From IMG/VR virus record IMGVR_UViG_3300014655_000241, positions 1-32,894 of that record: a stretch of DNA of 32,894 bases, one strand, 5' to 3'. Below the pieces are notes generated by a model. That model ran no database searches and had not been told where the DNA came from. It worked only from the letters and a program-made list of their open reading frames with translations. Positions 10,378 to 30,895 of this stretch are shown here, in pieces. The position numbers and the translations under genes were made by a program. Numbering within the stretch: position 1 is the stretch's first letter; every line of letters begins with the position of its first letter. The stretch comes from a virus (lineage: Duplodnaviria > Caudoviricetes).

Positions 10378-10842
10378 TCAGCTCCCGTACACAGTCGCCG
10401 CGGCGGCGCCCTGTCCAGGAACGGGTTCGGTGTAGGCGCTGCCGAGCACCATGTCGCCCGCGACCAGGTTGGCCGGCGAAGTGCCGCCGGTGTAGGTCGG
10501 GGTGATCACCAGGTACACGTAACCCAGCGCGGTCAGCAGGTTGGTGTGATACTCAACCGAACCTGCGGTCATGACGTTCAGCGCCGTGGCGAACTGGAAC
10601 AGAAGCGTGGCACCCGAGGTGCTGGCGCTGGTGTTGGTCCACAGGGCAACGTTGAGCGTGGCCGCAGTCGGAGCGCCGGTGACAGCCGCCCACTGAAGGC
10701 CGATGATCGCTTCCCGGTAGCCGAGGGTCTTGACGAAACCGCCGTTGATGGCGGTCGAGCCGGAAACCGACTGCGGAGGGAAGGGAGAAATCGAGCCGGT
10801 CGACTGGATGTGGGTCGCCTGCTGAAGCAGAAGCATTTTCAT
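10378..10842 (-). CDS. Probable capsid decoration/cement protein
   Basis: 154 aa beta-rich protein immediately after the capsid gene; SD GGAGGG. Confidence 0.55.
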   Translation of the reverse strand: MKMLLLQQATHIQSTGSISPFPPQSVSGSTAINGGFVKTLGYREAIIGLQWAAVTGAPTAATLNVALWTNTSASTSGATLLFQFATALNVMTAGSVEYHTNLLTALGYVYLVITPTYTGGTSPANLVAGDMVLGSAYTEPVPGQGAAAATVYGS

Positions 10843-10856
10843 AGTTTCATCCCTCC

Positions 10857-12110
10857 TTACAGGTACTCGCCCTGGAGAATCGAGACGGGGTGCTTGACGT
10901 TGAAGTCATGCTCGCAGACCAGCCGGATCAGGGTCTCGTCGCGCTGGAAAGCCGAGTAGGTCACGCCGCCGTTGACGTAGGAGCCCTCGCGGGAGATCTC
11001 CAGGGACAGGTCGTAGCCGACGCCCCAAAGCACTTCCGAGAAGTCGATCAGCCAGTAGTCGCGGGAAGCTCCCGAGCTGTAGGTCTGAACCGACGCCGAG
11101 GTGATGTAGGGAACACCGGTCAGGGACTGCCGGGTGGCCATCTCGTTGGCCCACGCGAAGGGGCCGGAGCTGAATGCCAGGTCGAGGATATTTCCCTCAC
11201 CGACAGGGTGCAGGATCCAGCGGGGGTTGATCATGGGAACGTTGGCGGCCCGCAGTTTCGCGCGCATGTCGTTGGGGGTTGTCAGTCCAAACGCGCCGGC
11301 GTAGTTGCCGACCGTCAGAATCCCGGGGACGTTGGCCAGGCCCAAAGGCTGGCCTCCGGTGCCGGTCCCGTACAGGAGCGCGACGTCGAGTCCGATCCGG
11401 GCTTTTTCCTGAAGGTCCTGGCTGATCCACGAATCGATTCCCACGGCGTTGTAACGAAGGAGCGAATTCGAAACCGGCACAATGGCGGTCATCTTCTTGG
11501 CCGACAGGCTGGCGTCTCCGAAGGTCGGCTGGGTGTTGTTGCCGGAAGGCAATTCATTGCCCCAGAAGACCGAGGACGAGACGTCCATGCGGGACATTCT
11601 CATGTTGCCGTTGGGCATCGGGATCTTGACCGCGCCGACCCTGTCCAGGATGGTCTGGTTGTACAGAACCCGGATGATGTCGGGACTCAGGACGGTGGGG
11701 ATGGTGAAGCCGCCCGCCGAAGGAATCCCGCTTTCAAGATCCTTCTGCAAAAGCCCGTGGAAGGTCTTGGCGCTCGGGTAAGCTTTCTTGGCGGTCTCGA
11801 GCACGGACTTGATGTCGCGGCCCGCTTCGGTCGACTTCTTTTCGTTGACGGTGATAGCGATGGCCGAAGCGTAAAGCCCAAGAAGATTCTTGGGGCTCTG
11901 GTCGTCGACGCCCTTGGACTGATTGCCCTGGTTGGCGGCAAACACGTCCATGAATTCCGAGCGCAGCTTGGTCCGCTGACCCTCTTCCGCAGCGATCGCC
12001 TTCTTTTCCCACTCGGCTTGAGCGGCGGCGACACGCTGGTCTGCAATCTTTCCGAACAGTTCTTCGATCTGAGCCTGGGTGTAGGTCCCGGCTTTGATAT
12101 CAGCAGCCAC
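10857..12110 (-). CDS. Major capsid protein, HK97 family
   Basis: N-terminal coiled-coil delta domain; SAGGFTIP, LSAKKMTAIVPVSNSLL, LYGTGTGGQPLGL and SAFQRDETLIR. Confidence 0.97.
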   Translation of the reverse strand: MAADIKAGTYTQAQIEELFGKIADQRVAAAQAEWEKKAIAAEEGQRTKLRSEFMDVFAANQGNQSKGVDDQSPKNLLGLYASAIAITVNEKKSTEAGRDIKSVLETAKKAYPSAKTFHGLLQKDLESGIPSAGGFTIPTVLSPDIIRVLYNQTILDRVGAVKIPMPNGNMRMSRMDVSSSVFWGNELPSGNNTQPTFGDASLSAKKMTAIVPVSNSLLRYNAVGIDSWISQDLQEKARIGLDVALLYGTGTGGQPLGLANVPGILTVGNYAGAFGLTTPNDMRAKLRAANVPMINPRWILHPVGEGNILDLAFSSGPFAWANEMATRQSLTGVPYITSASVQTYSSGASRDYWLIDFSEVLWGVGYDLSLEISREGSYVNGGVTYSAFQRDETLIRLVCEHDFNVKHPVSILQGEYL

Positions 12111-12160
12111 TATTTCACGGCGTATTCCTTTTCGTTCTTCGATCTGTTACGAACTGTTCT

Positions 12161-13318
12161 TCAGTTCGAGATAATCAACACCGACTTAGAATCGGCGTTA
12201 TCCGAATTGTCAAGGTCGTCCTGATCGTCGTCGCTATCGTCGTCAGGTTCGTCCTGACCGTCAAGCAAAGACTTCATTGCATCACCAATTGCCTGGTGAT
12301 ATTGCGCGGCCTTCGTCAAGGCCTTCTCCATCTTGGCATGATTCTCGGCAATCGCGTCAAGACTGGCCTGGTCCTTGGCGCTGTGCCGCTTTCCTGCTTT
12401 GGTGCTCACGTTACCCCCTTCGCTCTTGAGCTGCATTTCCCACGCGGCCTTGTCGCCGGGTACCTCGAGATCGAACTCGGCGTAGTGTTTGGCCAGGTGC
12501 GCTTTCACCGCTTCCTTGTCGCTGTCCGGAATGGACACGCCCCCGCGCGCACCGAGCACCGCGCCCATGGCAGCCATGACGCCGCGCTTGACGGTTTTGT
12601 AGCCGTCGGCAGTGTGGTGCGGGAGCTTGTAGCCCGACTTAACGTCCTCGTTTTCCGGATCCACCCACGCACACATTTTCTTGAGGTCGTCGACGCTCGC
12701 GGCGGCAACCTCGGCGGGGCCGTCCCACGAAGTGTCGGGATCAGCCAGCGGATACTTGTGGAACGGCAGTGCACCCTTTTCCATAACGTCCTCCCATTGC
12801 TTGGCCTGTTTCGCGGAAATCGCGCCGCTCTTGATGCCCTGGGCGAGCGCGTTGGGGTTGGCCGGAACAGGCACGGCTGAGAACTCGTAAAGCTCCCATT
12901 TCTTGATCAGCTTCCCATAGCCGGACTCGCTCTTCGGGTTGGGGCTCATCTCCACGGGCTGGAACCCGATCGAGACGGCCGAGAGCATTCCGGCCTTGTA
13001 CATGCAGTACGTGGTGTCCACCAGGCGGGCCTTCTCGCTGGCAAGCTCAGGGTCGGTCGACAGCTCCTGGACGGTAGGGAAGTACACGTCTGCCATGACC
13101 TTGTTGCCGTCGATCCACCAGCGCTTGGGGACGCCAAGGGGGAAGTCGTAGTAGTTGTGGAAGCCAAGAAACTGCGGGTTCTTGGCGAAGTTGGTGAAGT
13201 CGCATCCGCTGGCGAGCATGATATCCTCGTCCCGGTCCTGCGAGTCGTCGGAGATCACGAAGCGGATCATCCGGGCCCCGAGGTCGGTCGGGGCGGCCAT
13301 GGTGGTTTTCTTGTTCAT
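12161..13318 (-). CDS. Prohead (capsid maturation) protease, HK97 family, with long C-terminal extension
   Basis: DRDEDI, NPQFLGFH (His), LSAVSIGF (Ser) and ELYEFSAVPVPANPNA, followed by an extra domain and an acidic tail. Confidence 0.95.
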   Translation of the reverse strand: MNKKTTMAAPTDLGARMIRFVISDDSQDRDEDIMLASGCDFTNFAKNPQFLGFHNYYDFPLGVPKRWWIDGNKVMADVYFPTVQELSTDPELASEKARLVDTTYCMYKAGMLSAVSIGFQPVEMSPNPKSESGYGKLIKKWELYEFSAVPVPANPNALAQGIKSGAISAKQAKQWEDVMEKGALPFHKYPLADPDTSWDGPAEVAAASVDDLKKMCAWVDPENEDVKSGYKLPHHTADGYKTVKRGVMAAMGAVLGARGGVSIPDSDKEAVKAHLAKHYAEFDLEVPGDKAAWEMQLKSEGGNVSTKAGKRHSAKDQASLDAIAENHAKMEKALTKAAQYHQAIGDAMKSLLDGQDEPDDDSDDDQDDLDNSDNADSKSVLIISN

Positions 13319-13683
13319 GCTTTGGTCCTCGGCACACGGCTTGAGACGCGCCCTTTCCAGTACGACAGGTCTTCTCCAATGGCCGTCACCACGTCGAGCA
13401 CCTTGGCAATGCTCGCCTCCGTCTTGGCCTGGCTTGCGGCGATGTTCTCGAAGCGCACGGCGTCTTCACCCCTGGCCTGCTCGAGCGCGGATAACCTTGG
13501 CATGACTTCCTCCCGGATGGTGGCGTGGGCCGCGTCGACGTCCTTTCGCAGATCCTCTTCCCGCTGGCCCTTGGCGCCGGTCGCCTTCGCTGCCGACAGC
13601 GCCCTGGAGAGAATCCCGATCACGAAACCAAGCGCGGCGAGGACGAAGCCTCCCACGGTGCAGATGATTCCCAATTCGCTCAC
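13315..13683 (-). CDS. Small membrane protein (one N-terminal TM helix plus coiled coil), possible holin/XhlA-like lysis accessory
   Basis: LGIICTVGGFVLAALGFVIGIL hydrophobic stretch; SD GAGGGGG; ATGA overlap with the protease gene. Confidence 0.6.
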   Translation of the reverse strand: MSELGIICTVGGFVLAALGFVIGILSRALSAAKATGAKGQREEDLRKDVDAAHATIREEVMPRLSALEQARGEDAVRFENIAASQAKTEASIAKVLDVVTAIGEDLSYWKGRVSSRVPRTKA

Positions 13684-13693
13684 GTCGTCCCCC

Positions 13694-15943
13694 TCAGTCC
13701 AGAACCGGCAGCAGCGTGCACCGGCAGTTGACTATGTTTTCAGGTGACCCGTCAGGGTCGCCCGGATAGTCCATGTCCTCGCCGCCGACGTTGAAGCTGT
13801 CGTCCATCTTCACGACCTGGCCGTCCGCGTCCGCGTGGTCGTCGCGCGTTCGGTCATCCTGCACGGCCATCCACTCTTTCGACTCCACGCCCTCAGCCTT
13901 GTAGGTTTCCTGCTGGCCGTAGTTGACCGTGGATCCGGCCTCGGTTCGGGCAATCGCCTTCGCCCTGGTGGTGGTCATCTCGTCGTACACGCCGTCAGAA
14001 GCGGCCAGGATCTGTTTCACCAGGTCGGAGCTGTCGCCAGAGCTGACCGACTCGCTCACGGCCTTCTGGAGGGCTTTCTTGAGGGCTGTCAGGGTCGTGT
14101 CGTTCATGTCCTTGGACTTTGAAAGTCCGTTGGTGTCCACCCAAGTGTTGAAGCGGTCGTTGGTGACGTCGAAAGTTGAATCCAGGTCCGGGCGCTTGAC
14201 CATCTTCCCGGCGCCGCCCAGGACGGAAAGGGCGTGGTCGCGGCCTGCACCCATGGAGGCAATCCAGGCGGGAGCCAGCGCCGACTTCAGGGCCTTGTCA
14301 GCAGCGGGTCCGAACGCTGCGGCGGCGGCCTTGTCGGCAGCGGCCTCGGGGCTCATCTTCTGGCCTATGGCCGCTTGAAACTGGCTCTTGAACCGCTCGC
14401 GCTGGTTGTTGGCGTACTTCTTGACCGCCTTGCGGTAGACCGGCTCCGTGGCCGTTGCCGCCGCGTCGTAGGCCTTCCAGATTGCCGCACGCTTCGGGTC
14501 GGCCTTGGTCATCACGAGAACGACGCCCTTGCTGTCCTCGTCGTCGTCATCCGCCGCGTCAAGCGGATCGTCGTCGGTGTTGCCGCCGGTTCCGTCCGAT
14601 CCGGCTGAGTCGTCATCGTCCGTGATGGTGATCGTCGGTTCAGTCTGCGCCTCGCCGTCTGCCGTGTTGGGCGGGGGTTCGCCTCCGGCAGCTGGGGCAG
14701 GCTCTTCCTCTTCGGTCGGGTCTTGGTCGTAGGGGACGGCCTGGAGCATCACGGGCCTCAGGAAGACCTTGCCTGCGTTGTTGGGAAGTTCGGGGAGCTT
14801 GAGGAACGTCCGGGCCTCGTCGACCTGGACGACGCCGGCAGTCAGGCCCGCTTGAAGCCGGGTCCACACCGCGTCTTCGTCCTCGATTACCACGTTGTCG
14901 AAGCGCACGCACAGCTTCTTGTCGAAGTCGGGGGCGACCAGCTGCCGGTCAAGGGTCCGCTCAATCGAGTACAGCCGATACCTCAAGACGTTCTTGGCGA
15001 ACAGGTAGAAGCTGGCGTCGATGGTCGACCGGTTGGAGTTCTCGATGATGCCGAAGATCTCGGGCGGAATCTGGTAGTGCTGATTCGCCTCGTCCCGCCA
15101 GAACTTGCGGCTGTTGATCATGTCAACGTCTTTCTGCGATTCGCTCAGCTGCTGGATCGTGACGTCCTTGCCGTTGAGGACGGCGGGCTTGCGGGCGTTG
15201 ATCCAGCCGCCGACCTTGGCTATCCAGCTGTCCTTGAGCGCCTGAGCCTGAAGGTCGCTTGCCCCGGGAGCAAAGATGACGTAAGGCGGCGTAGCGTCGT
15301 TGAAGAAAAAGTTCTTCTGGAACTTGGCGGCCATCTCGTCGGCGGACACTTCGTCGGCAATCGCCTCCGAGAGCCCGCGCCCGCGGCTGTAAGGGTCGGT
15401 GGCGTCAACCCGCTTGAACCAGATCACGTCTTCGGGTGCCGCTGGGAACGCTTTGCCTGCTGTGACGCCGAACGGATAAATCAGAAAGTACGGCGTCGAA
15501 ACGCTCGGAGTGCCAGCGACCCACGCGGCCGGAACTGCCATGAGCGAGACGACCTGACTGCCCGGACCAGCGGCCCTTATTTTCAGCCAGAAGAACTCTC
15601 CGACCAGGTCGACAAGGATCGAAGTCAGGTACAAAAGCGCGACGCCGTCGATCTCCGGATACATCGGCATCGGGTTTTCAAGCAGCTCATAAAGCGGGTG
15701 GTCGTCGAGCGGATCGGCGGCGTGTCCTTTCGCGCGGACCTCAGCCTTTTTGTACACCTTCAGCGGCGTTGTGCTGACGGCCTGCCCGATGACGTGCACC
15801 GCGTCAAGGCGCGGATTCTTGTGGAATAAATCGGGGTATTCTGACTTGTCGCGTGTCGGCGCACGCGTCCAAAGCCGTTGCAAAACATTCGGGATATTTT
15901 TCGGGTTAATTGCGGCCTTTAGCTTGTCGAAAAAACTCGCCAT
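13694..15943 (-). CDS. Portal protein (HK97 type) fused to a MuF/SPP1 gp7-like minor head domain
   Basis: Portal motifs RGLS, FFFNDATP, YQIPPEIFG and VDEARTFLKL; acidic linker; MuF motifs RAKAIARTE, KEWMAVQDDRTRDDH and YPGDP...NCRC. Confidence 0.93.
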   Translation of the reverse strand: MASFFDKLKAAINPKNIPNVLQRLWTRAPTRDKSEYPDLFHKNPRLDAVHVIGQAVSTTPLKVYKKAEVRAKGHAADPLDDHPLYELLENPMPMYPEIDGVALLYLTSILVDLVGEFFWLKIRAAGPGSQVVSLMAVPAAWVAGTPSVSTPYFLIYPFGVTAGKAFPAAPEDVIWFKRVDATDPYSRGRGLSEAIADEVSADEMAAKFQKNFFFNDATPPYVIFAPGASDLQAQALKDSWIAKVGGWINARKPAVLNGKDVTIQQLSESQKDVDMINSRKFWRDEANQHYQIPPEIFGIIENSNRSTIDASFYLFAKNVLRYRLYSIERTLDRQLVAPDFDKKLCVRFDNVVIEDEDAVWTRLQAGLTAGVVQVDEARTFLKLPELPNNAGKVFLRPVMLQAVPYDQDPTEEEEPAPAAGGEPPPNTADGEAQTEPTITITDDDDSAGSDGTGGNTDDDPLDAADDDDEDSKGVVLVMTKADPKRAAIWKAYDAAATATEPVYRKAVKKYANNQRERFKSQFQAAIGQKMSPEAAADKAAAAAFGPAADKALKSALAPAWIASMGAGRDHALSVLGGAGKMVKRPDLDSTFDVTNDRFNTWVDTNGLSKSKDMNDTTLTALKKALQKAVSESVSSGDSSDLVKQILAASDGVYDEMTTTRAKAIARTEAGSTVNYGQQETYKAEGVESKEWMAVQDDRTRDDHADADGQVVKMDDSFNVGGEDMDYPGDPDGSPENIVNCRCTLLPVLD

Positions 15944-18412: not shown

Positions 18413-19381
18413 CTAGCCCACTCCGGCGCGCTTCGCCGCCTGGGCCTCGCGGATGAAATCCTTGGCGCTGGCTTCGATGACCACGGTGCCGTCTGGCGCG
18501 CGGCCCGAGTTCAGCGGCCTGTAGGCTTCCGGGCGCTGGGTATGGCCCTCGGCCTTCGGAGTACCGGCGATCCAGGCATCGGCGCTTCCCGCTCGGTCCC
18601 AGAAGTATTTCATTCCCGCCCAGTCGTTTTTGAACCCGTAGCCTTTGGCCTGCTTCGCCAGTGCAAACCTGTCGAGGTGCGCTTGAGCCTGGCTGCCGGT
18701 TGCCTGGAATAGCTCGAGCAGATCCTTCCGGGTGAACCTCACGCCCTCCGGTACGTTGAGCGTCGGGATGGGGTCGAAGTCGTCGGCAGGCGATGAGACA
18801 GGCGCTTTCGGGGGTTCCAAGTTTTCCACAGGTTTTTCAGCGTCCGATTTTTCGGACGGTGCAAATTCTTCTAACTCAGCTTCAGGAGAAGAGCTTCTAC
18901 TCTTGTCTTCTCTTCTCTCCTCTTGTATGTGGTGTTTTGGCGCGCCGTTTTCACGATCCTCCGCGCCGTTTTCCAATTCCTCCGAGGAACTACCATGGAA
19001 GTCTGGAAAACTGTCCGTCACAGGCGCGCGGTCCTTCCTCTTGCGGTTGCGTTCAGCCATGACGCGGGCGTGATCTTCCTGTGTCTTTTCAGTGGTCACA
19101 ATTCCGTCAACGTAGTGGATCAGGCCGCACTCTTCAGGGTCGGCAAGGAAGGTCAGGAACTCGTCCAGCTGAGCGGTTGTGAGGCCTAGGTCGTTGGCCA
19201 GGGACGAGCGCTGGACCTTCGCCGAGAGGTCGAGGCGCACGTTGTTGCAGCGGGCAATGGCTTCGTTCAGAGCCCAGAAACGGCCGTACCCTTCCCACCC
19301 GTACTGAGCGCGGAGCGCCTTCATCCTGGCGTTGTTCACGGCGTTGTTTTCGTGGCTGAAAAAAGGAAGATCATCTTTCAC
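18413..19381 (-). CDS. Phage replication initiator, DUF4373 (Lin1244/Lin1753-like) N-terminal domain
   Basis: FFSHENNAVNNARMKALRAQYGWEGYGRFWALNEAI; central low-complexity linker with DNA repeats; SD GGAGAG before GTG. Confidence 0.8.
   Translation of the reverse strand: MKDDLPFFSHENNAVNNARMKALRAQYGWEGYGRFWALNEAIARCNNVRLDLSAKVQRSSLANDLGLTTAQLDEFLTFLADPEECGLIHYVDGIVTTEKTQEDHARVMAERNRKRKDRAPVTDSFPDFHGSSSEELENGAEDRENGAPKHHIQEERREDKSRSSSPEAELEEFAPSEKSDAEKPVENLEPPKAPVSSPADDFDPIPTLNVPEGVRFTRKDLLELFQATGSQAQAHLDRFALAKQAKGYGFKNDWAGMKYFWDRAGSADAWIAGTPKAEGHTQRPEAYRPLNSGRAPDGTVVIEASAKDFIREAQAAKRAGVG
18822..18973. repeat. Putative replication origin inside the initiator gene (iterons, hairpin, DnaA-box-like site)
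   Basis: CGCGCCGTTTTC at 18941-18952 and 18962-18973; CGTCCGA/TCGGACG hairpin at 18841-18858; TTTTCCACA at 18822-18830; polypyrimidine tract at about 18894-18924. Confidence 0.6.
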
Positions 19382-20310: not shown

Positions 20311-23300
20311 CTACGCCGCGGCTTCCTTGTCGGGCCGTCCCTTGAGCTTGGTCACCTCCACGCGGTTGGGAATCAGCTCCTGCAGGTCAGAGCTGTGCGT
20401 GATGATGATCGTGTGGGAGCGGCCCGACTGTTCGTGAGCGGCGACAAGCATCCGGTAGTACGTCAGGCGCGCTTCGGGGTCGAGCGCTCCGTCGGCCTCG
20501 TCCTGGAACGCGGTCAGGAACTGCAGCCCCGTCGAGCGGGCCCGAATGACTCCGAAGGCGTCGTAGAGCGCGCGCCGGATCCACACGGCCTCACCGCCCG
20601 ACAGCGTGCTGATCTCCTGGCGCTCGCCGGTCTCGGAGTCAAGCACGTAGATCAGGAAATCCTCGATCAGCTTCTGAGTCTTCCCGGTGCCCGACAGGCG
20701 CTGGGTATCGAACTCCAGCTGGTAGCGCGACCCGAAGGCCCCGCGAAGCAAGGCGTTGGCGATGGCTCCGATGGAGGGCGCGACGGCGTCGAGCTCAAGG
20801 GCCTGGATGCCCTTGTCGGAGCATGCGAGCTCCAGAGTCTTCCATTCGGCAACCTCGGCTTGGAGACCCGCTAGAGCCGTTTTGAGCGCGTCCACGGCCT
20901 GGCGGTCCTTGGACAGCTCTTCGAGGCGGCGCTGGGCCTGCTCAAGCGCGGCCGCGGCCCTGGCCTCACGTCCCTGGGCGTCGCGGTACGCTGTTCGGGT
21001 TGCTTCGAGAGAGCGCTGAGCTTCGGCCAGTTCGGCGTCGAGCTCGGGCCTCAGTTCCGCCCGGAGCTCCGCCTCGCGCTTGCGCTCGCGTTCCGCCGTG
21101 GCCTGGAGGTCGGCCAGCTGCTTGGTCAGCTCCTCGATTCTCACCTGCGCCTGATCGGCCGCGGTGATCGTCGCCCGGGCCCCGTCGACGTCGATGAAGT
21201 CGAGAGCCGACTGGAGAGCGGTGCGGCGGGAGACGTCGAAGGCGGGGACCTGGCTGGGCGGAGGGACGAAGGCGGCGAGCGTCGGGGCCTTCGGGGCCTG
21301 GGCCTCGAGGTCGTTCCTTGCGAGCGTCTTCAGTCTCGCAGCTTCCCCGCGTTTTTCTTGGGAATCCAGGACTCTGGACACGTCTTGCTTTGCCTCGGCC
21401 AGCTTGTCAACGAGTACCTTCCGCGCCTCCTGCACGTGAGACAAGGCTTCTTGCGGGAGCATTTGGCGGCAGGTCGGGCAGTGATCGGCCACAGGAACGG
21501 CAAGTTCAGACGTCAGCCGCTCAACTTCCTTTCGGCAGGCGAAAAGTTCGTGGATGCCGTTGGAAAGGGTGGCCTGGGCTTCGTTCTCAGCGTTCCGCGC
21601 CTCCCGCACCTTCGTCTCATGCTGGGCCCGTACCGTTTCGAAGTCGGCCAGGATCTTGCGGTTTCCCGCGTCGTGCGTCTCGCGCAGTCCATCGACAACC
21701 TTCCGCTCATCGGCGACGGCCTCGAGGTGCTTCCTGTAGGCCGCGTCCTCGGCCGCCAGGGCTTGGGTCTTCTCGGTGTGCTCCTGGATGGTCGCTTCGG
21801 CCTGGGCCTTGCGTCCGAGCGCTTCCTCGGCCCTGGTGATGCCTTCGCGGGCCAGCTGGATCCTCGCTCCGGCGTTGGCCGCCGCTACGTGCGCGTCCTC
21901 AGCCTGCTGGGCCTTCTGCCGGTTCGCAGTCGCCTGAGCTCCGAGGGCGTCGGCCTTCGCGGAGTGATGCTTTCCAACCTCGGCCAGCACCTGAAGGTCT
22001 TCCTTCGCCGTCGCCAACTCCCCGCTCGCGGCTCCGAGGGCCTGGCCGAGTTCGTACTCGTTCGGCAGCCTCGCCTCGAGGGTGGAGATCTCCGTCGCCT
22101 TGATCGCGGCCCGGGCGTCAACCTGGTCGCCGCGTTCCTTGGCCAGCTTCTTGTACACCTCGAAGTACTCCAGCCCGCAAAGGGCGGAAAACAGCACCTT
22201 GCGTTCCCGCGGCGTCGCGTCGGCGATGTCGGGAATCCCCTTCGGCTGGCGCTGGGTCACGAAGGCGCTCTTGAGGTACAGATCGAGACTCCCGAAGATC
22301 TTGTTGACGGCCTCGACGTAGCCCTCCTTCCGCCCTTCGATGCCCGGGAGGGGCTGGGGCCCGTTGCCCTTGTCGACGTACAGGAAGTACTCGGTGGTGC
22401 CCGAGGCAATGGCCGCGTTGACGGTGATCAAGGCGCGGTACTTCCATCCGGTGGACTCGTCGGTCCAGTAGAGGTCGCGGAAGCTGTCGCGCAGCCGGAA
22501 GTGATCCTTGAGGACGCCATCCCGGGTGAGCAGGCTCGGCCACGGGTGCATGTTTTCGAGGATCGTAGTTTTCCCCGCACCATTGTTGCCGATCAGCGCG
22601 ACGAGGCCCGGGTCGATGGTCTCGAGGTTGAGGTCGATCTCCTCGAGGCCGGACTTTTTCCAAAGGCCGATAGCACCGCGCAAGATGAGCCGGGTCAAAC
22701 GGATCTTGTCGCCGCGGCCCACGGCGCCGGAAGCGGCGGCTTCGGCTTCGACCTGGTCAGCCTTCTCGAGGACAGTCGCGGCTAGTTCCTTGCTGGAGTT
22801 CTCGGCCCACAGAGTCACCTTGTCGCGGAGCTTCGTCTTGCTGGCGATCTCACCGGCGCGGACGGTCTCGGTGGGGAGCACGTTAAGAGTCACGCGGGAG
22901 CCGGGGCCCACGCCGTCCATGAAAAGCTTGAGCACCATCTTTTCGACGTCGACCGAAGCCGACTCTTCCTTGGTGCAGGTAATCTCAAGCCAGGTGTTGG
23001 CGCCGGGGGTGATCTGGCTGGAGGCGTACAGGGACGGCCAGCGCGCCGAAATCTTGCGGTTGACCGGATGGCCGAAGGGGACGCGGGTGACGTAGTGGCA
23101 CCAGACCTTGTCCGGGTGCGGCATGGACAGCTCCACCAGGTTGCACCCGGCTTCGTGCGTCTCCCCGAAGTTGATGGGGTACGCGGAGCCGGGATAGTAC
23201 GCCGGGAGCTTCCCGACCTGCTGAGGCTCGTGAATGTCTCCCAGGGCGATGTAGTCGGCTCCTACGGCCGCGAGGTCGTCGATGCTGGGCCGGATACCCG

Positions 23301-23922
23301 CGCCGTTGTCCAGCAGCTCGCCGTTCTGAAGACGAGCGCCCCCGACCTGGCCGTGGTAGACCAGGATGCACGGCAGCGCCGGATACTGCTTGCGGATCGC
23401 GCCCAGCCCCATAAAGAGGCCCTGGAGCCCGGCCCGCACGGCCTGCTCGGTCTCGCTCTTCCCGTCGAAGTAGGGAGCCAAGAACTTCTTGGAAGGCTCG
23501 GGGACGCCGAAGAGGAGGGCCAGGGCGTCGGGCCTATGTTCTTCCCGGACGTCGTTGAAGGCGCTCCCTTCAGAGGCGTAGTGCTTCGTCAGGAAATACG
23601 CCTTCCCCGGCTCCAGGATCGTGATGCCGAAGCGGCTTTCCAGCGTCGGGAACACGTCGAGCGAGCCCGCGGCGTCGTGCGTCGGGGTACCGTAGATCAT
23701 CACCAGGGGGGCGATGTCGGCCAGGCGGCGCACCTTCTCGAGGTACTCGGGGAAGCGGCTGCCCTCGGTATTGCGGATGATGCAGTCGGTCAGGTCGCCC
23801 GCCAGGATGAACAGGTCAACCGACTCGCGGCGGCCAGTCTCGGCCATGACGTCGAGGGACTGGAAAGCCAGGTCCGCAGTCTCGGGCTTGAAGTGCAGGT
23901 CAGCGGAGTGGAGGAGTTTCAA
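20311..23922 (-). CDS. Single-chain SbcD-SbcC (Mre11-Rad50) nuclease/SMC-ATPase fusion, 1203 aa
   Basis: Phosphoesterase motifs SADLH, AGDL, GTPTHD, YHG and LGDIH; Walker A GNNGAGKTT, Q-loop FVTQ, coiled coils, zinc hook CPTC, signature LSGGE, Walker B/D-loop FQDEADGALD, H-switch IITHS. Confidence 0.93.
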   Translation of the reverse strand: MKLLHSADLHFKPETADLAFQSLDVMAETGRRESVDLFILAGDLTDCIIRNTEGSRFPEYLEKVRRLADIAPLVMIYGTPTHDAAGSLDVFPTLESRFGITILEPGKAYFLTKHYASEGSAFNDVREEHRPDALALLFGVPEPSKKFLAPYFDGKSETEQAVRAGLQGLFMGLGAIRKQYPALPCILVYHGQVGGARLQNGELLDNGAGIRPSIDDLAAVGADYIALGDIHEPQQVGKLPAYYPGSAYPINFGETHEAGCNLVELSMPHPDKVWCHYVTRVPFGHPVNRKISARWPSLYASSQITPGANTWLEITCTKEESASVDVEKMVLKLFMDGVGPGSRVTLNVLPTETVRAGEIASKTKLRDKVTLWAENSSKELAATVLEKADQVEAEAAASGAVGRGDKIRLTRLILRGAIGLWKKSGLEEIDLNLETIDPGLVALIGNNGAGKTTILENMHPWPSLLTRDGVLKDHFRLRDSFRDLYWTDESTGWKYRALITVNAAIASGTTEYFLYVDKGNGPQPLPGIEGRKEGYVEAVNKIFGSLDLYLKSAFVTQRQPKGIPDIADATPRERKVLFSALCGLEYFEVYKKLAKERGDQVDARAAIKATEISTLEARLPNEYELGQALGAASGELATAKEDLQVLAEVGKHHSAKADALGAQATANRQKAQQAEDAHVAAANAGARIQLAREGITRAEEALGRKAQAEATIQEHTEKTQALAAEDAAYRKHLEAVADERKVVDGLRETHDAGNRKILADFETVRAQHETKVREARNAENEAQATLSNGIHELFACRKEVERLTSELAVPVADHCPTCRQMLPQEALSHVQEARKVLVDKLAEAKQDVSRVLDSQEKRGEAARLKTLARNDLEAQAPKAPTLAAFVPPPSQVPAFDVSRRTALQSALDFIDVDGARATITAADQAQVRIEELTKQLADLQATAERERKREAELRAELRPELDAELAEAQRSLEATRTAYRDAQGREARAAAALEQAQRRLEELSKDRQAVDALKTALAGLQAEVAEWKTLELACSDKGIQALELDAVAPSIGAIANALLRGAFGSRYQLEFDTQRLSGTGKTQKLIEDFLIYVLDSETGERQEISTLSGGEAVWIRRALYDAFGVIRARSTGLQFLTAFQDEADGALDPEARLTYYRMLVAAHEQSGRSHTIIITHSSDLQELIPNRVEVTKLKGRPDKEAAA

Positions 23923-24851
23923 GATTCCACCCCCTGGAGAACCTTCAGGTTCACAAGCACGTCGCGAGCCTTCGCCAGCAAGGTCGTGATCTCGTCGAGG
24001 GTGAAGCTGTCGGGAGTCCGAACCATGTTCTGCATCTTCAGGACTGCCGGCGACGTGGGGCCCAGGTTCTTGGAGTACTTCTCAAGGTAGTCCTGCATGG
24101 TCGAAAGGTAGACGAGCTTCGGGTCGGGCTCGCTGTCGGTCGCGTTGCCCTGAGGTGCGAACTCGTCAGCGCCCTCAGGCGTCACGTCCCTTTCAGCCGG
24201 CGCGCCGATCTGCTGGGCGCCGGGCCTGGGCCCGTACAGGCGCTCAGTGATGCCCAGGGCGTTGGCCACGGCCATCTGGCGCCCTTCCGCAGTCTCGAGG
24301 ATGTAGTCGGTGTTCTGGACGATCCGGGCGAAGAGCATGGGCCTGTTGGCCTCCTCGGGCGTCAGAGCAGTGGGCATGCCGGTCAGCTGGCGCACCACGC
24401 GCACCCGGGCGCCGGTAGCGGCCCGCTGCCGGGCAACCTTCAGGTACGCGAGCACCTTCTTTTCATCGCCGCCCTCGGCCTTCGCGCGCAGCAGTGGGTC
24501 GAACTCGTACTCTTCCACGGTCGACGTGCGCCAGGATCCGTCCGAGATCCGGACTTTGCCCTGAGCGCGGCCGATGAACACCGTGCGCTTCCCGAACTGG
24601 TCGTCCCGGGCCTCGGCGGTCACGGTGCAGTTGCTGTCGATGTAGTTGATTCCGGCGGCGTCGCCGATCCGGTCTACAACGGCCTTCGCGGGCATGAGCT
24701 TGCCGCCGTCGATCTTGTGGAATTCATCGGGCCTGGCGGCGATCTCGGTCACTTCCGGCTTGAACAGCGGGGGTGTGTCGAGGTTGGGCGCGGTGTAGAT
24801 GGCCACGCCGCGGGTGCGGGCCTTGTCGATGATGGCCAGTGCGTTATTCAT
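23919..24851 (-). CDS. Hypothetical protein, candidate single-strand annealing protein (Rad52/Sak/ERF-like)
   Basis: Coupled to the SbcDC fusion (TTGA overlap); beta-meander then QRAATGARVRVVRQLTG helix, flexible linker and small helical C-terminal domain. Confidence 0.45.
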   Translation of the reverse strand: MNNALAIIDKARTRGVAIYTAPNLDTPPLFKPEVTEIAARPDEFHKIDGGKLMPAKAVVDRIGDAAGINYIDSNCTVTAEARDDQFGKRTVFIGRAQGKVRISDGSWRTSTVEEYEFDPLLRAKAEGGDEKKVLAYLKVARQRAATGARVRVVRQLTGMPTALTPEEANRPMLFARIVQNTDYILETAEGRQMAVANALGITERLYGPRPGAQQIGAPAERDVTPEGADEFAPQGNATDSEPDPKLVYLSTMQDYLEKYSKNLGPTSPAVLKMQNMVRTPDSFTLDEITTLLAKARDVLVNLKVLQGVES

Positions 24852-25122
24852 GCTTCGCTCCTTTGAAAATCCGAGTCACGTCCTCGGTGCTCATCCACGG
24901 CAGTTCGATCTTGTTCTTCAGGGCCCAGTCGGTGAGGTCCATGCCGTCCTCCGTCACGATGCCGAAACGCTCGGCGTGGCGGATCGCGGTCGGCTCCCCG
25001 TACTGGACGCGGCCCATGAACCGGAACGCGTCGAAGCCTGTCATGTGGATCACGCCGCGCGCGTCCCTTGACAGGTCGGGCAGAGCGTTGGTAGTCTCTT
25101 GGTTGACGATCAAAGCGGTCAT
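24844..25122 (-). CDS. Hypothetical protein (92 aa)
   Basis: ATGA overlap with the upstream gene; SD AAGGAG. Confidence 0.7.
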   Translation of the reverse strand: MTALIVNQETTNALPDLSRDARGVIHMTGFDAFRFMGRVQYGEPTAIRHAERFGIVTEDGMDLTDWALKNKIELPWMSTEDVTRIFKGAKHE

Positions 25123-25427
25123 GCTCTTTCGTCTCCTTCTTCAAACAAGCTCCCCGGCAAGGGAGCTTTTTTTGTGTCCGGCAACGCCGGGGTTTGCAGC
25201 AGTTCGGTTGCGATGACGGACAGGTCCCCGATGAGCTCCATGCTCTCGAGGTAGGCCATCCGCGATTCGAAGCCCGCGTTGTACGCGACCTTCTCCAGGT
25301 TCATGTCGTGAAGCTGATCCCACTTGTTCCACAACAGCTTCCAGACCCACGATTGAGCGATGCCCTTGAAAGCGGCGTAGGCGCTCACCTGTTCGCGGAT
25401 CTGATCGCTGAGGATGAGGGGAGGCAT
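25119..25427 (-). CDS. Hypothetical helical protein (102 aa), antirepressor-associated
   Basis: TAATG overlap with the antirepressor gene; globular composition. Confidence 0.65.
   Translation of the reverse strand: MPPLILSDQIREQVSAYAAFKGIAQSWVWKLLWNKWDQLHDMNLEKVAYNAGFESRMAYLESMELIGDLSVIATELLQTPALPDTKKAPLPGSLFEEGDERA
25147..25173. terminator. Probable bidirectional intrinsic terminator
   Basis: AAGCTCCC-CGGCAA-GGGAGCTT stem; T7 run (25167-25173) on the plus strand, TTGTTT on the minus strand. Confidence 0.65.
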
Positions 25428-26137
25428 TACGAGGCCTCGGTCAGCTTCGCGGCCAGCCAGACTTCGCCCTTGCCGGTCACCAGCGCCGTGGTGTGGTTGA
25501 CGATCTTCTCGCCGTGCGGAATGGCGGTGACGTGGGTGCGGAAGTAGCCGCTGTCCAGGAACTGCTGATAGGGAACCCAGTCCATGTTCGAGTTGCGGAA
25601 GATGATCCCGAGGCGGTGGAGCTTCCCGAAGATCCGCACCGGGCCCTCGCCCAGGCTCTTGGCAAAGTCCTTGATGGTCATGGCGTTGTCCGCGCTGGCG
25701 ATCTTGTCGGCGGCCGCCACCTTGGGCGCCTGCTCTTCGATCATGCGGGCCTGGGCCTCGATCTGCTCGGTGGCCGTCAACAGCGCGCGCAGGCTCTCGG
25801 TGTAGGTCTTCGGGATGCGGGCCGCGTAGACGCCGTAGCGCCGGATCGACGGAATGACTTCGTGAGTGACCCAGCGTTTGAACGCCTTGGCTTCCTTCTT
25901 GCGGGAGCCCAGCACCAGCGCATACAGGCCGGGCTCCGAGACGATGGTCACGCTCTGCCGACCGCCAGGGGTGTGGATTGAATCCACACCCTTTTCATCG
26001 TCGTCCAGACGCTCAAGCGACGTCCGATCGACGTCGAGAACGCGCAGTACATCTGCAGCGACAAACCAAGGCTCATTGTCCTTGACCGTCGTTCGCACCT
26101 TGAAAGCCTCGTTCTGGAAAATCTGAAGTCCGTTCAT
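25427..26137 (-). CDS. ant: Phage antirepressor, BRO-N plus ANT/KilA-C domains
   Basis: EPWFVAADV, IVSEPGLYALVLGSRKKEAKAFKRWVTHEVIPSIRRYG; IPKTYTESLR; PKVAAADKI...PYQQFLDSGYF...VTGKGEVWL. Confidence 0.93.
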   Translation of the reverse strand: MNGLQIFQNEAFKVRTTVKDNEPWFVAADVLRVLDVDRTSLERLDDDEKGVDSIHTPGGRQSVTIVSEPGLYALVLGSRKKEAKAFKRWVTHEVIPSIRRYGVYAARIPKTYTESLRALLTATEQIEAQARMIEEQAPKVAAADKIASADNAMTIKDFAKSLGEGPVRIFGKLHRLGIIFRNSNMDWVPYQQFLDSGYFRTHVTAIPHGEKIVNHTTALVTGKGEVWLAAKLTEAS

Positions 26138-26319
26138 ACCGTCACACCCTCCCCTTTCTCCACCTCAGCAATCGCCTTCTCCAGGAGAAGGCACGCCATG
26201 TCGGACCGGCTCCGGCGCTTCCTTTCAGCCAGAGCATCCAGCTGGCCAAGAAGACCGGGGGTGATCTTGGTCCCCAGGAAGGCGGTCTTCTTTTCGGGCT
26301 TCTTCGTGTTCTCGTCCAT
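26134..26319 (-). CDS. Ribbon-helix-helix (Arc/CopG-like) regulator
   Basis: FLGTKI strand plus LLGQLDALAERKRRSRSDMACLLLEKAI; SD AAGGAGG. Confidence 0.85.
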   Translation of the reverse strand: MDENTKKPEKKTAFLGTKITPGLLGQLDALAERKRRSRSDMACLLLEKAIAEVEKGEGVTV

Positions 26320-26410
26320 CCCGACCTCCTTTTAGTAGGTTAAACCTACCACAACCTATTCGTCAAGTCTTCGGTTCAACTTAAGTAAACTTTTCGACGA
26401 TAATTGAGGC
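26320..26410. promoter_or_regulatory. Divergent promoter/operator region between two RHH genes
   Basis: Palindrome GTAGGTT-A-AACCTAC (26335-26349) plus extra half-site AACCTAT (26353-26359); leftward TTGACG-N18-TAACCT; rightward GATAAT (26399-26404) 6 nt before the ATG. Confidence 0.7.
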
Positions 26411-26647
26411 ATGCCACCCCGAGCGCCCAGGCAGGAAAAGCGCGAGTACTTCGGAGCTAAGTTCCTCCCGACCACCATTGAGGCCTTGAACATCATGGCC
26501 GTCGGTGAGAACCGGTCCCTGTCGAACATGGCGGAAACGATCATCCTGGAGTGGTTCCGGGACCATCGTCCCGATATCCTGGCGAGCGCCGTGAAGGGTT
26601 TGGGTGCAACCGACCGCCCCGACCTGCTGCCCGAGCCGAAGGGGTGA
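26411..26647 (+). CDS. Ribbon-helix-helix regulator, divergent (Mnt-like position)
   Basis: YFGAKF strand plus TIEALNIMAVGENRSLSNMAETIILEWF. Confidence 0.8.
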   Translation: MPPRAPRQEKREYFGAKFLPTTIEALNIMAVGENRSLSNMAETIILEWFRDHRPDILASAVKGLGATDRPDLLPEPKG

Positions 26648-30544: not shown

Positions 30545-30895
30545 ATGGACTTTTGGGATCGGCTAAAGGTCGAGGTGAAAAGGAATAACACCACTCAGGA
30601 CTGGATAGCCGGAAAGATCGGAGTAAGTGGCCGCACCTTCCGCGGCTGGGTTTCCAGGAAGATCATGCCCAACGCCGATCAAGCCCATGCTCTTGCTCAG
30701 GCCTTGGGCGTCACCGTGGAATACCTGGTGACTGGCTCGGACTCAACAGACCCGTGGGTCAGGGAGCACAGAGACCTTGTCGAGAAGCTGAAGCGGATCG
30801 AAGCCGAGCCGACGGCCTTCGGAATGGTTGCGGACGTGATCGACTCTGCCGACCGGCGCCTGACTGGCTTGGGAAAAGCCTCCAGTGCTGGGTGA
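30545..30895 (+). CDS. Prophage repressor, XRE/HTH_3 family, lacking an S24 autocleavage domain
   Basis: TQDWIAGKIGVSGRTFRGWVSRKIMPNADQAHALAQALGVTVEYLVTG; divergent from the early operon; only 116 aa. Confidence 0.9.
   Translation: MDFWDRLKVEVKRNNTTQDWIAGKIGVSGRTFRGWVSRKIMPNADQAHALAQALGVTVEYLVTGSDSTDPWVREHRDLVEKLKRIEAEPTAFGMVADVIDSADRRLTGLGKASSAG

Follow-up and report, generated by a model that had tools for sequence, protein, structure and literature searches.

Natural fusions of the Mre11 nuclease to the Rad50 ATPase were described by Yoshida, Claverie and Ogata in 2011 (PMC3175470), who list 12 besides that of mimivirus, including those of Bacillus phage 0305phi8-36 and a Clostridium kluyveri plasmid. 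Further viral fusions, phages included, appear in a preprint (bioRxiv 10.64898/2026.07.21.739742). The 32,894-nucleotide provirus record IMGVR_UViG_3300014655_000241 (Caudoviricetes), analyzed here over its whole length and hereafter called the window, carries a fused SbcD-SbcC (Mre11-Rad50) gene of 1,203 amino acids (aa). Taken alone, this fusion is a further member of the published class, and these two sources contradict the initial annotation, which knew such a fusion only from mimivirus. We propose that the fusion and the gene overlapping its start form a Red-like two-gene recombination module with Mre11-Rad50 (MR) in place of Exo, a reading to which we assign a probability of roughly 0.6. 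It builds on the observed linkage of the two genes and in-place replacement of the partner, on a predicted partner fold and, for the chemistry, on general MR biochemistry.

In lambda Red (Exo-Beta) and RecET, the early operon likewise pairs the gene of an end-processing nuclease with an adjacent annealase gene, and the annealases combine an N-terminal core with a three-helix C-terminal domain, as predicted for the partner (PMC9512822, PMC8093625). The nuclease of the window differs from theirs in being an ATP-driven MR machine and not a YqaJ/RecE 5'-3' exonuclease, and its predicted annealase belongs to no Pfam family. PMC8093625 touches only briefly on sak4 adjacent to sbcC and on recT in the vicinity of SMC genes. 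T4 gp46/gp47 and jumbo-phage SbcC/SbcD are also phage-encoded MR complexes within recombination/replication modules (PMC7824862); however, they are two-gene systems of large lytic phages, in T4 accompanied by UvsX/UvsY, whereas the type found in the window is a single chain with arms of 200-260 aa in temperate phages of 35-65 kb.

The best cultured-phage match of the fusion is Leptospira biflexa phage LE1 (NC_048892), where gp76-gp75-gp74 correspond to a partner homolog, SbcD and SbcC, arranged as in the window and overlapping by 4 nucleotides (nt). LE1 differs in that the genes are unfused and motif III is the canonical GNHD, and gp76, annotated as hypothetical, is only distantly similar to the partner (23% over 153 columns). 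The C. kluyveri plasmid fusion is a distant relative of the window protein (profile E value 3.9e-68) and, as in the window, has a partner homolog, CKL_RS19240, upstream, at a distance of 432 bp (E 1.5e-30). With the fusions of Yoshida et al. the window protein shares the order of N-terminal nuclease and C-terminal ATPase in one chain, a position outside the canonical clades and the His206-to-Asp change of the mimivirus R555 type, but its clade forms a branch separate from the Clostridium/gut clade. A tblastn search with the fusion at 1e-5 matched no published phage fusion, and the accessible portions of the 2011 paper and of the preprint make no mention of the annealase partner.

Clustering of neighboring genes returned a single family directly upstream of the fusion, usually overlapping its start by 4 nt; in the window, the stop of the partner overlaps that start by TTGA. 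All 54 fused loci that extend far enough have the partner upstream, which speaks against the self-contained enzyme first proposed: the fusion travels with this gene. A profile search found the partner in 62/67 family loci, a count that includes duplicate loci and 32 partners used to build the profile; plain BLAST clustering, which dispenses with that profile, gave 60/67. Of 47 low-scoring loci, for the most part ordinary sbcD, 45 lack the partner, and the other 2 are truncated members of the lineage. The reverse search, baited with a divergent partner subclade, yielded 89 loci. Among the 46 with at least 1.2 kb of downstream DNA, all 46 have the nuclease within 778 bp (37 of these loci are new and fall into 20 clusters at 70% identity); for the 43 with shorter downstream DNA, the nuclease is visible in 20 and not in 23. 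A viral scan using a single distant partner as query returned no locus. HNH endonuclease genes interrupt the fusion, separate it from the partner or lie immediately upstream (L080, L081, L082, L006, L128), and the module seems to attract homing endonucleases.

Nuclease and annealase-like genes are thus adjacent and co-inherited, as in Red/RecET. RecT, ERF and YqaJ proteins were found in none of 48 phage records, nor were YqaJ, DUF3799 and PDDEXK_1 (PF09588, PF12684, PF12705). This absence, together with the coupling to a predicted annealase, supports one option raised at the outset, namely that the enzyme replaces a Red-type exonuclease. In one lineage, the partner is itself replaced in place by a true Rad52/Sak annealase. 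Such a replacement sits poorly with a role like that of T4 gp46/47, in which the fusion would process ends for recombination-dependent replication, or degrade host DNA, using host RecA, and the upstream gene would encode a mediator or helper binding single-stranded DNA (UvsY/RecO-like) and not a stand-alone annealase. This explanation draws on the action of gp46/47 both in breaking down host DNA and in recombination-dependent replication, and on a replication initiator downstream in 46 clustered loci, a superfamily 2 (ResIII/Helicase_C) helicase nearby in 34 and a single-stranded DNA-binding protein in 19. Rad52-fold proteins can, moreover, act as mediators. The genomes are nonetheless of lambdoid temperate type with an initiator gene, and the window shows no UvsX or DNA polymerase; we regard the T4-like role as unlikely. 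With respect to the helicase, in locus L024 it lies between sbcD and sbcC (11197-12774), and L023 has a similar-sized gene at the same place (11146-12691); it may aid resection, and none was found near the fusion in the window.

The annealase assignment derives from structure prediction. Models of the partner reached predicted confidence scores (pLDDT) of 90 and 96, and the best matches of its N-terminal domain in three fold searches were RAD52, Mgm101, ERF and RecT, at moderate scores. The partner is accordingly modeled, and only predicted, as a Rad52-fold annealase core plus a three-helix C-terminal domain. Its only phage-family match is the unannotated phrog_13782. Family searches of the window's record gave no profile match to the named annealase families Rad52_Rad22, ERF, RecT and Sak4, a PDB sequence search with the partner returned coiled-coil noise only, and tblastn found no match in cultured phages. 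The family is large, with 1,636 clusters at 50% identity at E<=1e-10 and 2,478 at 1e-3. Prediction of a complex between the partner's C-terminal domain (aa 232-310) and the head of the fusion (aa 1-620 and 995-1200) scored 0.00, which is uninformative either way. A conserved protein of ~65 aa, with no Pfam/PHROG match, usually stands just before the partner in 26 loci (e.g., L078:8711-8890) and is absent from the window's cluster set.

The fusion itself is, as initially annotated, an uninterrupted open reading frame; it has a TTG start and no internal stop. It matches PHROG 77 (SbcC-like; E 1.6e-36) and PHROG 100 (SbcD-like; E 1e-5), and its Pfam matches all fall below the cut-offs. A profile of 108 homologs matches Mre11 (3qg5_C; E 5.8e-22), E. 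coli SbcC (6s6v_C; E 4.1e-11) and E. coli SbcD, the last up to profile position 324. Hence, a metallophosphoesterase and an SMC-type ABC ATPase share one chain, with the nuclease half N-terminal. The complete Rad50-type ATPase, the CPTC hook and the roughly symmetric arms of ~220 aa described earlier all proved correct: Walker A (GNNGAGKT at aa 445; pattern kept in 102/108 homologs), Q-loop, signature (LSGGE, aa 1107), Walker B and D-loop (FQDEAD, aa 1139) and H-loop (ITHS, aa 1174) are present, and the arms measure 232 and 220 aa (G583-C815 and C818-G1038). Arm lengths co-vary across the 108 sequences, which are kin to one another (Pearson r 0.95), in keeping with the demands of an antiparallel coil. 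A proline-rich break interrupts the descending arm at aa 877-898 (21229-21294), with P877 and P888 conserved in at least 90% of 120 sequences.

Toward the junction, the length of the SbcD half and its profile match fit, by homology only, a capping domain and Rad50-binding helices; this region holds a conserved TETVRAGEI with invariant R355 and I359, and the SbcD of LE1 aligns over aa 1-378. The joining of SbcD to SbcC was recognized from the start, at ~22700-23050, and has been upheld, but the junction is narrower than that. Split relatives break at profile positions 382-402, which places it at ~aa 396-406 (22737-22705). The distance across it, from K368 to G416, is 47-49 aa in 102/108 homologs.

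Split relatives could prompt the suspicion that an assembly or frameshift artifact joined two genes. This was examined and rejected, with a negligible residual probability: more than 100 fused homologs come from different sources, linker length is conserved, and contigs in two studies bridge the junction. One, from run X1, spans 22599-26500 without differences and may be the source of the record; the other (X2), from a related strain in another study, bridges 21902-23067 with 90 differences and 7 gaps. A third run (X3), of RNA, holds scattered short pieces of the region which, being contigs, show no expression.

The nuclease half retains motifs I (DxH), II (GD) and IV (H) and the catalytic His of motif III. 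In the window, the five motifs read ADLH (aa 7), AGDL (aa 41), GTPTHD (aa 78; 23691-23674), YHG (aa 189) and GDIH (aa 228; 23241-23230), with ligand positions D8, H10, D43, H190, D229 and H231 and catalytic H82. The initial annotation placed the deviant GTPTHD and GDIH correctly. Motif III departs from GNH[DE], where Asn is a metal ligand, by T/T in place of N and a 2-residue insertion, and GTP[ST]HD is common to 106/113 homologs. Motif V departs from GHxH; however, it is polymorphic among the 56 fused loci (GHxH in 35, GDxH in 19, 2 unread) and R555 of mimivirus has the same His-to-Asp change (PMC3175470), so that GDIH loses its standing as a defining oddity. Altered motifs III and V might inactivate the nuclease, leaving a protein that would only bridge or cap ends for the annealase, for example by shielding phage ends from host RecBCD/AddAB in a Gam-like manner. 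We judge this improbable, for besides the retention of GHxH in most fused loci and the R555 parallel, D8, H10, G42-D43, H82-D83, H190 and H231 vary hardly or not at all across 108 homologs (29-73% identity) and an Asn persists within the inserted motif of related clades. Motif III indeed forms a series, from GNHD (canonical proteins and LE1) through GNNSHD or GNFAHD (split relatives) and GTPNHD or GTGNHD (gut and C. kluyveri fusions) to GTP[ST]HD in the window's clade. The two-residue insertion is old, and T79 or T81 is a candidate stand-in for the Asn ligand. Conservation of the nuclease residues argues for an active enzyme, short of showing activity.

Two trees of the nuclease core, both built by a quick method and carrying support from the SH-like approximate likelihood ratio test (SH-aLRT) only, place the fusion outside the canonical cellular SbcD clade. 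Only a third of the canonical outgroup was included, 2 identical copies and loci without the N terminus were dropped, and the tree with the gut and C. kluyveri proteins uses a hand-thinned set. A single clade (SH-aLRT 99) gathers all 56 fused rows together with those relatives whose split lies at ~aa 265-290. Split relatives with the ordinary junction (Bacteroidota, Ignavibacteria and others), most of them with the partner, fall outside it, and the partner link is therefore older than the fusion. L009, first labeled a split gene, is a truncated contig. Within the clade, four fusions are re-split after the nuclease core, at ~aa 265 (L020:5937-12496, L125:9825-14632, L126:9346-14632 and L081:2001-5964), a point that coincides with the core's C-terminal end; each piece has its own start and stop, and 1-7 other genes stand between them. 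The fusion thus appears to have been re-cut at a new point at least twice, independently, with the capping domain left on the ATPase chain. An intron as cause of these splits was rejected, as no intron family reached the Rfam gathering score and ordinary genes separate the pieces, although L081, with one HNH gene between them, may hold an unrecognized one. In L125, the ATPase piece (10814-14632) contains a LAGLIDADG intein, and a HEARO RNA match above the Rfam gathering score lies at 20716-20926.

The reverse search also exposed a gut-metagenome fusion clade (L210-L237; e.g., L217:7529-11377) with a C-x7-C hook in 15/15, motif III GTPNHD and Walker B DEPPFLD. Among plasmid proteins, the C. kluyveri fusion matches this clade best (36.5% over full length); it has neither CxxC nor C-x7-C. 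The Clostridium/gut clade (SH-aLRT 100) is separate from the window's (SH-aLRT 99); with a backbone support of 40, this is compatible with either one fusion event or two. In all, 86 plasmid records matched, and many large Burkholderiales plasmids have split, non-canonical sbcD/sbcC relatives; in the two examined (L147 and L148) the gene upstream is not a partner homolog but a different one, of 460-480 aa.

Homologs number 133 at E<=1e-3, and 113 of the 120 listed, counting that of the window, have lengths of 1000-1320 aa. The architecture is therefore conserved in more than 100 full-length proteins, mostly from spirochaete bins, which, with the repressor and integrase of the provirus, bears out the original description of a single-chain MR enzyme in a small temperate phage. 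The viral scan gave 55 loci, mostly on contigs of 35-65 kb or on fragments. In the species-genome scan, 10 of the 13 full-length fused loci among the matches listed come from spirochaete bins and the rest from bins of Clostridia, Planctomycetia and Ca. Aegiribacteria; our best guess at the host of the window phage is a spirochaete. Of 401 Spirochaetota genomes only 4 gave a match to the partner gene, a weak one in two cases, and the module is therefore accessory; hosts of fusion relatives carry a separate, weakly matching sbcCD-like locus.

The record, estimated to be 61% complete, encodes portal, capsid, tail, terminase, CI-like repressor, antirepressor and integrase (features are collected in Table 1). 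A single 749-aa frame (13694-15943) joins its portal to a Mu F-like head morphogenesis domain, a known form given the full-length match of this frame to phrog_2662. The share of 11% of the genome first attributed to the fusion gene is accurate for the record (11.0%), but in the whole prophage it is probably nearer 7%, because of that incompleteness. The module sits in the early operon, between antirepressor and replication initiator. This placement, in an early lytic operon and not among lysogeny cargo, tells against a weapon with which the prophage would exclude competitors, an SbcCD cutting hairpin-ended, linear or palindromic DNA of other phages and plasmids. The threat that host MR poses to the hairpin-ended phage N15 lends that idea some substance, but it leaves the strict coupling to an annealase-like gene unexplained, and we consider it very improbable.

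Table 1. Features of the fusion locus and its phage context (window positions).
Feature	Position	Strand	Basis
Fused SbcD-SbcC (Mre11-Rad50) gene, 1203 aa	20311..23922	-	Open reading frame, PHROG and profile matches
Metallophosphoesterase (Mre11/SbcD) core, ~aa 1-268	23119..23922	-	Motif conservation, profile match
Capping domain and presumed Rad50-binding helices of SbcD half, ~aa 269-395	22738..23118	-	Inferred from homology
Fusion linker, ~aa 396-406	22705..22737	-	Break points of split relatives
ABC ATPase N-lobe: Walker A 22590-22567, Q-loop Q557	22153..22704	-	Motif conservation
CPTC zinc hook at apex of antiparallel coiled coil	21469..21480	-	C815 and C818 invariant in 108/108
ABC ATPase C-lobe: LSGGE 20604-20590, Walker B/D-loop 20508-20479, H-loop ITHS 20403-20392	20392..20810	-	Motifs
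Partner gene, 310 aa (predicted Rad52-superfamily annealase); N-domain aa 1-208, three-helix C-domain aa 244-301	23919..24851	-	Linkage, models, fold searches
Phage replication initiator, downstream in same early operon	18413..19381	-	Lin1244_N and phrog_2562 matches
Antirepressor	26137-25427		Context
CI-like repressor	30545-30895	+	Temperate marker
Integrase	32894-31881	-	Temperate marker

By analogy with MR biochemistry, two fusion chains would dimerize into a head equivalent to M2R2 (two Mre11, two Rad50), ATP binding would load it on a free or protein-blocked DNA end, and Mn-dependent endo- and exonuclease cuts would then expose single-stranded DNA. The annealase would pair this strand with homologous phage DNA independently of RecA, with break repair, concatemer formation and genome reshuffling as outcomes. 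Fusion would fix a 1:1 ratio of nuclease to ATPase and let both move as one gene; it is not essential, because split ancestors and re-split descendants exist. Two points limit the parallel with Red. First, MR exonucleases run 3'-5', and the scheme consequently has to assume either an endonucleolytic nick or that 5' tails anneal, which is its weak step. Second, none of the 48 records has a 5'-3' exonuclease of the YqaJ/RecE (PD-(D/E)XK) type, so that the pair can at best resemble Red in function without belonging to that system.

We consider it likely that the pair represents a variant, so far undescribed, of the cut-and-anneal recombination systems of phages on which genome engineering draws. 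The literature searched contains no description of the annealase family or of the module, but it did not include Iyer, Koonin and Aravind (2002) on annealase neighborhoods and the supplements of Yoshida et al. and of the preprint, which may bear on novelty. Tentatively, at a little under even odds, we extend the proposal to a widespread undescribed class of phage two-component recombinases, in which a new Rad52-fold annealase family (~1,600 clusters at 50% identity) is dedicated to an ATP-driven Mre11-Rad50, fused or split, that replaces Exo/RecE. Such a class would be a minimal prokaryotic equivalent of eukaryotic MRX-Rad52 single-strand annealing, able to act on protein-blocked breaks.

The module assigns to these fusions, whose function has been an open question since 2011, a specific role that can be tested, and it puts a name on a large unannotated phage protein family. 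If the Red-like model is true, repair of CRISPR or restriction breaks, suggested in the initial annotation, would follow from it, and the pair might serve for recombineering in hosts where Red works poorly. Cultured and harmless carriers exist in L. biflexa phage LE1 and also in the C. kluyveri plasmid. The family further offers natural structure-function variants, such as the re-splitting that puts the capping domain on the ATPase chain and the C-x7-C hook. If the Red-like model holds, two genes would suffice to reconstitute MR resection and Rad52-type annealing, and would offer a simple system in which to study the production of annealable ends by MR.

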